DNA of 64,000 nucleotides from Promethearchaeia archaeon (GTDB lineage: Archaea > Asgardarchaeota > Lokiarchaeia > Sigyniarchaeales > SOKP01): contig JAHQWK010000001.1 of NCBI GenBank assembly GCA_029856145.1, forward strand, positions 96,001 through 160,000. Direction: 5' to 3'. Numbering within the stretch: the stretch's first letter is position 1; each line of letters opens with the position of its first letter. This document shows positions 5,979 through 8,678 of the stretch, piece after piece. Position numbers and translations under genes: made by a program. The notes under the pieces were generated by a model. The model made no database searches. It was not told the DNA's origin and worked only from the letters and a program-made list of their open reading frames with translations.

Positions 5979-7283
5979 CTAAAAAATTGAGAAATTAACA
6001 TATGGCTTTAACTCATCTAAAACAAAATTTGTATATGTATCTTCTATTTCCTCTGAAATATATAGATTTTTTATAAAAGTTGCATAATCTTCAATTTCCT
6101 TTACTCTTACGATTGCAAATAGTCCATATTGTTCGCCTATTCGAAATAAATCTGTAATATTTTTATTTCTATCCAATCTAAGGGCAAGTTCATTATATTT
6201 TGAAGGATCCTTTGGTTTAATACGAACAAGATATTTTCCTTTAAAACCTATTTCTTTTGGATGAAAGTTTACTGTATAATTTAAGATAATACCTCGTTGT
6301 TCGAGTTTTTTAATTCTGTTATGAATAGTTGATTGGGATATTTCCATTTTAAGTTGTTCTTTAAATAAGTTTCTTATTTCATAAGTGGATATTGGTTTAA
6401 GTCCTTGACCATCACGTAATATATTTAGAATAATATAATCAATATTGTCTAATTCAAAATCGGGCTCAATATCTTTCTTATCTAATTTTATTCCCGTTTT
6501 CCTTATATTTTTAACAATTTTATCAATTACTAAATCCACTTTTGTTGCACTCTTTAAACCAGTCACAATTATTTTACCACTTGAGAAAATTAAAATTTTT
6601 ACTTGTAAATTTTCAATTTTCATAACTAGACCCGGAAATTTATCCGGACTATATTCAATATCTGCGCTTTTTGCAGCAATTTGATTTAAGTCAATTTTTT
6701 CTGGAATTTCTATAACTACATTCTCACTTTCATAAACCTTCTTTTCTTTTAATACATCAGTTAATTGAGCCACAAGTTCTTCTTCAATAGACATTTTTGA
6801 CTTTCTAAGGCTAATTCCATTTGTTTTAAACACTTTAATAGTTTCAATAATTTGATATTTTTTAAAATATGATTTTGCCATTATTTTATCAATATTATTT
6901 AATATCTGATAATATTCTTCAGGGGATTTAAAGATAAATAAGGCGAATAAAGAAAAATCTCCAATAATACCATCTAACATTCTTAGTTGGGGGATTTCTA
7001 ATAATTCATTTACTAACTCAGGCTCTTTTGGATTGGTTTTAATTTCAAGCATTACATATTTCAAGGTATTGGGACGAATATTTGGATCAATATTTATTGT
7101 AAAATTTGTAATTATTTTTTGATCTCTCAAATCATCAAGTTTGTTTTGATATGTTTGCCTAGAGAGCCCAATCACACGTGAATTTTTTGATATAATAAAT
7201 TTAGTTTTTCCACTTAAGTTTTTTATAAAGTTTTGGGCTTCTACCCTATCTATCACATTATTCAAATTATGACAATTTTGCAA
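5979..7283 (-). CDS. Tandem Lrp/AsnC regulator with an inserted single TBP-repeat domain
   Basis: Two HTH+RAM modules (GLSRQTYQNKLDDL..IITNFTINID; LDNIDYIILNIL..ISQSTIHNRIKKLEQRGII) flank YSPDKFPGLVMK..ILIFSSGKIIVTGLKS. Confidence 0.85.
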   Translation of the reverse strand: MQNCHNLNNVIDRVEAQNFIKNLSGKTKFIISKNSRVIGLSRQTYQNKLDDLRDQKIITNFTINIDPNIRPNTLKYVMLEIKTNPKEPELVNELLEIPQLRMLDGIIGDFSLFALFIFKSPEEYYQILNNIDKIMAKSYFKKYQIIETIKVFKTNGISLRKSKMSIEEELVAQLTDVLKEKKVYESENVVIEIPEKIDLNQIAAKSADIEYSPDKFPGLVMKIENLQVKILIFSSGKIIVTGLKSATKVDLVIDKIVKNIRKTGIKLDKKDIEPDFELDNIDYIILNILRDGQGLKPISTYEIRNLFKEQLKMEISQSTIHNRIKKLEQRGIILNYTVNFHPKEIGFKGKYLVRIKPKDPSKYNELALRLDRNKNITDLFRIGEQYGLFAIVRVKEIEDYATFIKNLYISEEIEDTYTNFVLDELKPYVNFSIF

Positions 7284-7397
7284 TTTTTTTGATTATTATT
7301 AATTAAATGTTAAATTTTTCTTATAAATCATTGCATTCGACCAAAAAAACATTTAAAAATTAATTAAAACTAGAGATCTTAAAAATTATAAATTGAA

Positions 7398-8678
7398 TTG
7401 AAGAAAAAAATGACAAATTATAAAATTGCTGATGAGAGCTTAGCAAATCAAGGGAAAGAGGCATTATATATTGCAGAAAATAAAATGCCTGTTACAGCAA
7501 GAATTATTCGGGAACGGTTTTCTAAAGAAAAACCTTTAGAAGGTATAACTATCGCCGGTTGTTTACATATAACAAAAGAAACGGGTAATCTTGCTCGAAC
7601 TTTAAAAGCGGGGGGAGCAGAAGTATATCTCTGTGGGAGTAATCCATTATCGACTCAAGATGATGCAGCGGCAGCATTAGTACAAGAAGGGATTAATGTT
7701 TTTGCTTGGCATGGTAATACCGACGAAGAATTCTATTGGTGTATTAGGCAGTGCTTAGATGCTAAACCAAATATCCTTATTGATGATGGCGCTGATATGA
7801 TTGTAACTGCACATCAGGAATATGAAGACCTAATAAAATCAGGTACTATTATCGCATGTCAAGAGGAAACTACAACAGGTGTTAAAAGATTTAAAGCAAT
7901 GGAGAAAAGAGGACTTTTGAAAGTACCTCTATTCCCTGTTAATGATGCCCGATGTAAAAATCAATTTGATAATGAATTAGGCACGGGTCAGGGTATAGTA
8001 TCTGCAATATATGGGATGCATGTTCTTTTTGCAGGCAAAAATGTAGTCATCGCGGGATATGGTCATTGCAGTTCAGGCATGGCACTCAGAGCACGAGGAT
8101 TAGGCGCGAACGTAACTGTAACAGAAGTTGACTCCATAAAAGCATTGCAAGCAATATTTGCTGGATATACTGTCAAGCCTATTGAAGATACTTTACCTAA
8201 TGCGGATATTATTTTAACAGCTACTGGTTGCAAGCATGTCATTGCTCCTAAAAAAGAGTTATTTGATAGTTTAAAAAATGGAGTTATCCTTGGAAATCTT
8301 GGACACTTTGATATAGAGATTCCTACTAAAGAACTATATGAATATGCAAAAGAAATAAAACCTATTCGACAAAATGTAGAAGAATTAATTTTTCCTAATG
8401 GTAAGAAAGTTTATCTATTAGCTAAAGGAAGATTAGCAAATTTAGTCTTATCAGAGGGGCACCCAAGTGAAGTAATGGATATGTCGTTTGCTTTACAATC
8501 ATTAATGTCAGAATATATAGTTAAAAATAAGGACTCCCTAAACCCAGGTATGGTTGATGTACCTATGGATATCGATGATAAGGTTGGTTTTCTCAAATTA
8601 CAATCAATGGGCGTTAAAATAGATAAATTATCTGAAGAACAATATAATTATATCCATGGATTTCTCGAAGGCACTTAA
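7398..8678 (+). CDS. ahcY: Adenosylhomocysteinase
   Basis: GCLHITKET, SNPLSTQD, DDGAD, EETTTG, GHPSEVMDMSFA; true start may be ATG at 7410. Confidence 0.97.
   Translation: MKKKMTNYKIADESLANQGKEALYIAENKMPVTARIIRERFSKEKPLEGITIAGCLHITKETGNLARTLKAGGAEVYLCGSNPLSTQDDAAAALVQEGINVFAWHGNTDEEFYWCIRQCLDAKPNILIDDGADMIVTAHQEYEDLIKSGTIIACQEETTTGVKRFKAMEKRGLLKVPLFPVNDARCKNQFDNELGTGQGIVSAIYGMHVLFAGKNVVIAGYGHCSSGMALRARGLGANVTVTEVDSIKALQAIFAGYTVKPIEDTLPNADIILTATGCKHVIAPKKELFDSLKNGVILGNLGHFDIEIPTKELYEYAKEIKPIRQNVEELIFPNGKKVYLLAKGRLANLVLSEGHPSEVMDMSFALQSLMSEYIVKNKDSLNPGMVDVPMDIDDKVGFLKLQSMGVKIDKLSEEQYNYIHGFLEGT

Follow-up and report, generated by a model that had tools for sequence, protein, structure and literature searches.

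A tandem Lrp/AsnC regulator of a Lokiarchaeia archaeon, encoded divergently from the SAH hydrolase gene ahcY, carries in the linker between its two Lrp modules a single repeat of the TATA-binding protein (TBP), copied from the N-terminal repeat of the main tbp. Each part of this protein is known, and the literature searched gives no account of the combination; the fusion is real, conserved but optional. The gene lies in a 64,000-nucleotide stretch of contig JAHQWK010000001.1 (positions 96,001 to 160,000), which as a whole is called the window here.

Gene architecture and predicted fold

The gene occupies a single uninterrupted frame of 434 codons (5979-7283, minus strand); relatives begin six codons later, and TTG at 7265 is for this reason the likely start (Table 1). 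The Pfam TBP profile (PF00352) matches residues 187-262, in a single stretch only (E 1.7e-20, 73 bits against a cut-off of 22.9), and the Pfam AsnC ligand-binding domain is matched in two stretches of the protein. The best PDB sequence matches are archaeal TBPs for residues 188-268 (E 2.4e-24) and Lrp proteins for residues 278-426. An assembly artefact is ruled out by 95 distinct aligned inserts from independent Lokiarchaeia assemblies. The insert is present in 94 of the top 121 database homologues, and the relatives belong by database name to Promethearchaeota/Lokiarchaeia. A weak search for fusions longer than 760 aa found none.

In an AlphaFold model built from 143 sequences all five domains are folded (mean pLDDT 87, pTM 0.80), with the insert at a pLDDT of about 80-88, and the N-terminal HTH, which has a weak Pfam score, forms a full winged HTH in this deep-alignment model. 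The predicted insert superposes on a TBP structure with Z 9.5 and rmsd 3.0 over 87 residues; each predicted Lrp module has the winged HTH plus RAM fold of archaeal Lrp structures (Z 11-14), and in the Lrp parts of the model, taken together, 276 residues align with NirDL, a fused pseudo-dimer (Z 17). The host is predicted to be an intramolecular pseudo-dimer with its RAM domains paired within one chain, and such pairing would leave one half-TBP per pseudo-dimer. The RAM loops are strongly conserved, and effector binding is at present a prediction.

A reading of this DNA made from the sequence only had proposed an Lrp-TBP-Lrp fusion in one frame, and the Pfam and PDB matches and the 95 distinct inserts confirm it. 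Both intercalating phenylalanines that it noted are present (F216 and F233), in a repeat whose strand 1 is about four residues shorter, and its two complete HTH plus RAM modules hold in the predicted fold. It had placed the insert at residues 187-266; the TBP repeat does lie there, but the insert is longer, extending over about residues 160-267. The additional segment, residues 160-186, is absent from 24 of the 95 inserts and represents, at least in part, what is left of the N-terminal extension of TBP.

Table 1. Positions of the features discussed; entries beginning with L refer to loci of other genomes, all others to the window
Feature	Position	Strand	Remarks
Tandem Lrp/AsnC gene with TBP-repeat insert	5979..7265	-	likely start TTG 7265, 428 aa; longest frame from 7283
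RAM domain 2	5982..6248	-	residues 346-434; dN/dS 0.07
Winged HTH 2	6249..6455	-	residues 277-345; dN/dS 0.12
Single TBP repeat, copy of main tbp N-repeat	6483..6725	-	residues 187-267
Insert 5' part, helix and loop	6726..6806	-	residues 160-186
RAM domain 1	6807..7073	-	residues 71-159; dN/dS 0.04
Winged HTH 1, divergent but folded	7074..7265	-	residues 7-70; dN/dS 0.08
Candidate operator (site A), TTAA-N7-TTAA	7299..7313		over the putative lrp start site; operator role and binding proposed
Candidate lrp TATA box and BRE	7320..7335	-	putative, from consensus and conservation
Candidate ahcY BRE and TATA box	7340..7359	+	putative, from consensus and conservation
Candidate site B, TTAATTAAAA	7360..7369		follows the ahcY TATA box immediately; 61 bp to site A; function presumed
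ahcY (SAH hydrolase), likely regulated gene	7410..8678	+	TIGR00936 above cut-off; likely start ATG 7410
C-terminal TBP-repeat protein	L246:1312-2277	-	also L247, L248, L249, L257-L259, L263, L265
TBP-GTPase-ArsR protein	L250:2280-3803, L253:3-731	-	also L276, L277; P0122-P0127
ahcY inserts of family f21	L222:737-766 (-), L223:3128-3157, L226:2309-2337, L239:679-707 (-), L240:3128-3154		candidate introns

Origin of the insert

The genome encodes two complete TBPs and no other lone repeat, including no lone C-repeat partner. To the N-repeat of the genome's own main tbp the insert is 69% identical in DNA over 237 nt and its core 63% identical in protein; identities to the donor N-repeat core span 33-67%. 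When the phylogeny proposed in the sequence-only reading was carried out, the inserts grouped with N-repeats and apart from C-repeats (support 100/99). Some inserts retain DYKIEN, the TBP segment that precedes strand 1, and then have a gap of four residues, from which it follows that the 5' half of tbp was copied. The suggestion that a YEPE stirrup had become YSPD was mistaken: the acidic YEPE stirrup that binds TFB is on the C-repeat of TBP, the stirrup of the donor N-repeat reads YNPE, and YEPE was therefore never part of the insert. The motif GI-x-L stands on both sides of the insert, and these repeats may have aided the insertion event. Ongoing gene conversion with the host tbp was not seen (synonymous identity 0.53 to the own tbp and 0.52 to others, p 0.27), and synonymous sites between insert and donor are saturated (0.53 against a baseline of 0.51).

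Several observations concern the TBP genes themselves. The main tbp (G000:C4:25316-28323, L001) lies directly downstream of genes that are small-GTPase-like by motif, on the same strand, and the second two-repeat TBP is divergent (G000:C13:79678-80301, L003). Many Lokiarchaeia genomes have 4-10 TBP-repeat matches. The main tbp of genome G149 (L171, G149:C18:18716-19393) has an internal TAA between or near the repeats, which may point to either an error in sequencing or a gene that is split.

Gain, loss and probable movement of the insert

Orthologues with and without the insert, which had been suggested as a search in Asgard genomes, were both found, and 35 of the 111 family loci carry it. In a DNA tree of the Lrp parts only, 34 carriers and 10 non-carriers form one branch (99/99), and a carriers-only clade is rejected (p-AU 0.005). 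Three insert-less groups are nested in this branch and have three different junctions; one of them is the group nearest to the present gene. The simplest and most likely account from these trees is one gain and at least three deletions. Most orthologues never had the insert, which is optional. The insert type represented by G043 and P0078 retains more TBP-like ends and could, on weak support, come from a second copying event. Natural versions with and without the insert are 75-85% identical in the rest of the protein.

The distribution of the insert requires 13 changes on the arcS tree, which follows genera, and 4 on the Lrp tree. Carriers of different genera cluster, for example G075 with G140 and G149 (100/100), and so the insert allele seems to have moved between genera in place. 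Such movement is by itself no proof of benefit, because ahcY is similarly shuffled.

Selection and surface conservation

The insert is under purifying selection. Its dN/dS is 0.215 [0.197-0.233], up to about 0.23, and neutrality is rejected (2 delta lnL 304). The donor repeat has a value of 0.008, so that constraint on the insert is about 30-fold weaker than on its donor; the Lrp domains lie at 0.04-0.12. Values by site class were computed with our own GY94 code, on classes assigned from yeast TBP numbering. They are 0.15 for the core, 0.18 [0.15-0.22] for the DNA face and 0.31 [0.28-0.35] for other exposed sites, the last being the practical baseline since a similar value, about 0.31, was obtained for loose segments. 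What the DNA face shows in added constraint is modest, and folding or protein contact could account for it instead.

Conservation within the repeat is uneven. The DNA face is net basic in 95/95 inserts, and the stirrup FPG, the IFSxGK motif and the helices are retained. F216 is present in every one of the 95, and P217 is nearly invariant; both phenylalanines occur in 83, and the second is missing in 12. There is drift at several phosphate-contact positions (the equivalents of R105, R110, T118 and T124), and conservation within the insert is lowest on the outer surfaces of the helices. Strand 1 forms the two-fold interface of the TBP saddle; its VVAT motif is 97-100% conserved in 69 donor repeats and 0-2% kept in the 95 inserts. 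Judged by these residues, the insert retains the binding face and has lost the pairing edge.

The ahcY locus and the shared spacer

The neighbours ahcY, arcS, raSEA, gar1 and tfb were all confirmed. Among 134 other genomes in the family, 125 encode the tandem Lrp, at one locus per genome where examined, and orthologues of about 310-320 aa are found in other Lokiarchaeia and several other Asgard families. The divergent arrangement with ahcY, already remarked from the sequence, has proved to be a supported link: ahcY adjoins the tandem lrp in 109/111 family loci (the remaining two are at contig ends), 5/5 other Lokiarchaeia and 12/13 loci of other Asgard classes, and the divergent orientation recurs in several Asgard lineages, where the insert is mostly absent. 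The functional tie once suspected with the arcS-raSEA-gar1-tfb side found no support, although those neighbours are there: arcS adjoins the tandem lrp within the family only, has shifted away from it in several genera and does not neighbour the distant orthologues. Because the ahcY adjacency persists while the arcS side loosens, the conserved partner is ahcY and not tfb, and the protein is a probable ahcY regulator common to several Asgard lineages.

In the lrp-ahcY spacer the BRE/TATA-like elements of the two genes stand back-to-back. Column identity at site A is 0.80-0.92 by group, and the site is kept with and without the insert; site B is 0.97-0.99 identical within the insert clade and 0.68 outside it. 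No promoter change tied to the insert was found, the same elements occurring in carriers and losers. When a wider regulon was sought with a site A weight matrix, its own site ranked first and there was no clear SAM-cycle gene in the top 25. The second match precedes an unrelated gene; the motif is AT-rich and weak, so a wider regulon may still exist. A sigma-70 scan, with a model unsuited to archaea, gave matches at chance level.

Some further observations were made on ahcY and its surroundings. In family f26 an amidohydrolase that is MTA/SAH deaminase-like by motif is convergent on the tandem lrp (L219:2109-3281, L220:2473-3645, L221:2471-3643), in line with an SAH-linked role. The tree of ahcY (window 7410-8678) strongly conflicts with genus labels, with 26 changes against 10 for arcS, which suggests frequent in-place replacement at the ahcY locus. 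In f21, another Asgard family, an insert of 27-30 nt that is bulge-helix-bulge-like interrupts ahcY at one and the same position in 5/5 fetched loci (Table 1), and one of these genes has a second, 56-nt insert (L239:791-846, minus strand). Although the inserts differ in length, all five genes regain the frame (TKWEFDN) when each bulge is cut behind its second base, and we regard these inserts as candidate spliced mRNA introns in a protein-coding gene, of which the literature searched gives no account. In a genome of family f31 ahcY is broken by a short hairpin-folding insert with an in-frame stop (L232:3551-3584), possibly another such intron.

The same half-TBP on other proteins

Additional hosts were traced through genomes with odd numbers of TBP matches. 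One, encoded in nine genomes, is a protein of 319-324 aa that carries the repeat C-terminally and has relatives of 225-270 aa without it; its body may be longin-like (the Atlas lead is NPR2, score 0.87), and the dN/dS of its repeat is 0.21. Another, of about 507 aa, has an N-terminal repeat followed by a Ras-family (Rab-like) GTPase and an ArsR-type HTH, and it too has relatives without the repeat. The GTPase-like genes upstream of the main tbp may be relevant to this fusion. Genome G097 encodes a stand-alone single TBP repeat of 96 aa with strand 1 intact (L251:3089-3376, minus strand). The extra half-TBPs all resemble the N-repeat (41-55%) more than the C-repeat (29-33%). Separate copying is suggested for the GTPase and longin-like sets, each of which groups on a branch of its own (100/100 and 95/95, respectively) and has retained ancestral ends unlike those of the other; a single shared origin of the three fusion families is not rejected (p-AU 0.49, 76 columns). 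It would seem that part of the general transcription apparatus has been reused as an optional add-on.

Discussion

We tentatively favour, at a little short of an even chance, the interpretation that the insert is an optional accessory DNA-gripping domain of a pseudo-dimeric regulator of ahcY and lrp. The single-chain Lrp pseudo-dimer would bind the short spacer and control ahcY and its own gene, with an effector that is probably a SAM-cycle metabolite or an amino acid. The short linker between the Lrp modules would have received, in one lineage, an in-frame copy of the main tbp's 5' half; there the half-TBP would fold alone and its phenylalanine-bearing concave face would grip or kink AT-rich DNA beside the operator. 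Against this reading stand the repeated deletions, the unchanged promoter, the weaker constraint than in the donor, the drifting phosphate-contact positions and the 12 inserts that lack the second phenylalanine. The presumed outcome, and with it the sign of regulation, would be either that affinity is raised or that the host TBP is hindered. The insert would neither rebuild the saddle, recruit TFB nor replace TBP; every carrier checked keeps a full TBP, for which reason the insert is not a TBP replacement.

The possibility that comes nearest to this, though rather unlikely, is that the insert is a tolerated passenger, a chance in-frame fragment of tbp in a permissive linker that is kept folded only to spare the regulator and is shed by clean deletion. 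The three or more deletions, the promoter that is unchanged between carriers and losers, and the fact that the Lrp modules have a similar dN/dS whether or not the insert is there (0.07, 0.09, 0.06) all fit such a passenger, and the shuffling of ahcY between genera means that spread need not mean benefit. However, constraint is stronger on the exposed DNA face than elsewhere on the exposed surface, with F216 and P217 nearly invariant, the insert has persisted to synonymous saturation against its donor, and the same repeat is under selection in another host protein. Constraint on the face might also reflect contact with protein and not DNA, the concave face or the helices binding the host TBP, another TBP-binding regulator or a neighbouring pseudo-dimer. 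Hydrophobic face residues do have a lower dN/dS than polar phosphate-contact residues (0.14 against 0.21, with intervals that nearly touch), and Lrp-type activators such as Ptr2 work via TBP contacts (PMC2995911), but the net basic face of all 95 inserts, the poor conservation of the outer helix surfaces and the location of the TFB-binding acidic stirrup on the other repeat make this improbable.

The sequence-only reading had envisaged either two half-TBPs that pair into a saddle or a decoy for TFB. Both are unlikely, given that the insert has a broken pairing strand and, as an N-repeat, does not include the C-repeat stirrup to which TFB binds, and that the Lrp modules are predicted to pair already within the chain. 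In its elaborated form, in which an effector joins two pseudo-dimers so that their half-TBPs make a promoter-specific TBP, the saddle draws on the retention of both phenylalanines in most inserts, on the effector-dependent higher oligomers of Lrp dimers (PMC2995911) and on the existence of single-repeat TBP proteins (PMC3597702). It is nevertheless more doubtful still than protein contact: nearly all inserts have lost or exchanged the strand-1 residues that lie at the two-fold axis, an N-repeat paired with an N-repeat would lack the TFB stirrup, the genome has no lone C-repeat partner, and carriers keep full TBPs and ordinary promoters. That the host is an enzyme resembling the siroheme decarboxylase NirDL/AhbAB, likewise a fused Lrp-like pseudo-dimer, is hardly credible even with NirDL as the top structural match (Z 17), given 13% identity, the absence of the HxYxR motif, AhbA/B model scores of 19-21 bits against cut-offs of 125-140 (Lrp models reach 56-64) and a neighbour that is ahcY and not a haem gene.

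Returning to the accessory DNA-gripping domain, a broader proposal, which we advance as speculative and on balance doubtful, is that the TBP N-repeat is a portable DNA-bending module copied more than once, onto tandem Lrp, Rab-like GTPase-ArsR and longin-like proteins, so that proteins sensing a ligand or GTP could act directly on TATA-like DNA, either competing with the general TBP or priming it. Models of TBP origin assume that one TBP domain can work alone, and the known single-domain cases are either ancient without a traceable donor or poorly characterised. Since the donor of the insert has been identified, natural versions exist both with the repeat and without it, and three host proteins carry the same half, half-TBP function is directly testable. 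If the insert is a passenger only, its value falls to that of a clear example of domain capture and loss.

Comparison with known systems

The literature searched, in which coverage of subscription papers is limited, contains no account of an Lrp-TBP fusion, in keeping with the earlier impression that the architecture had not been described. Among archaeal Lrp/AsnC (FFRP) proteins, PH1519/FL11 (2cyy, 2e1c), LrpA (1i1g) and Ptr2 resemble the present protein in the winged HTH and RAM domain of each module, and archaeal Lrp/AsnC regulators resemble it in having a divergent target gene and a candidate operator over their own start site. They differ in that here two unlike modules are fused into a single chain whose linker contains a TBP repeat. 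Ptr2 activates through contacts with TBP, a separate protein (PMC2995911), whereas the Asgard protein carries half of one. NirDL/AhbAB (4czc, 4czd) has the same fused HTH-RAM-HTH-RAM geometry, but its enzyme motif is absent from the Asgard protein. SahR, which is ArsR-type, belongs to a different protein family. In Proteobacteria it is a SAH-responsive regulator of ahcY and of itself (PMC4239095), and the likeness is in proposed role only; the Asgard effector is a proposal, and no wider regulon was found.

With canonical archaeal TBP (two copies of PF00352; 2z8u, 1mp9, 1ais) the insert shares the N-repeat core of its donor, the stirrup and the helices. Unlike it, the insert is one repeat with a broken strand 1 (N-x-V, VVAT) and no C-repeat stirrup, and it is dispensable. 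Single TBP domains are known from halobacterial TbpA, the monopartite proteins of Thermococcales, RNase HIII and DNA glycosylases (Brindefalk et al. 2013, PMC3597702); that study never mentions Lrp and describes two isolated fusions to N-terminal DNA-binding domains, without homologues. TbpA is like the insert in being one TBP domain close to the full TBP of its host. The TBP domains carried by RNase HIII and the glycosylases are too diverged for a donor to be named, whereas the donor of the insert is plain and relatives with and without it coexist.
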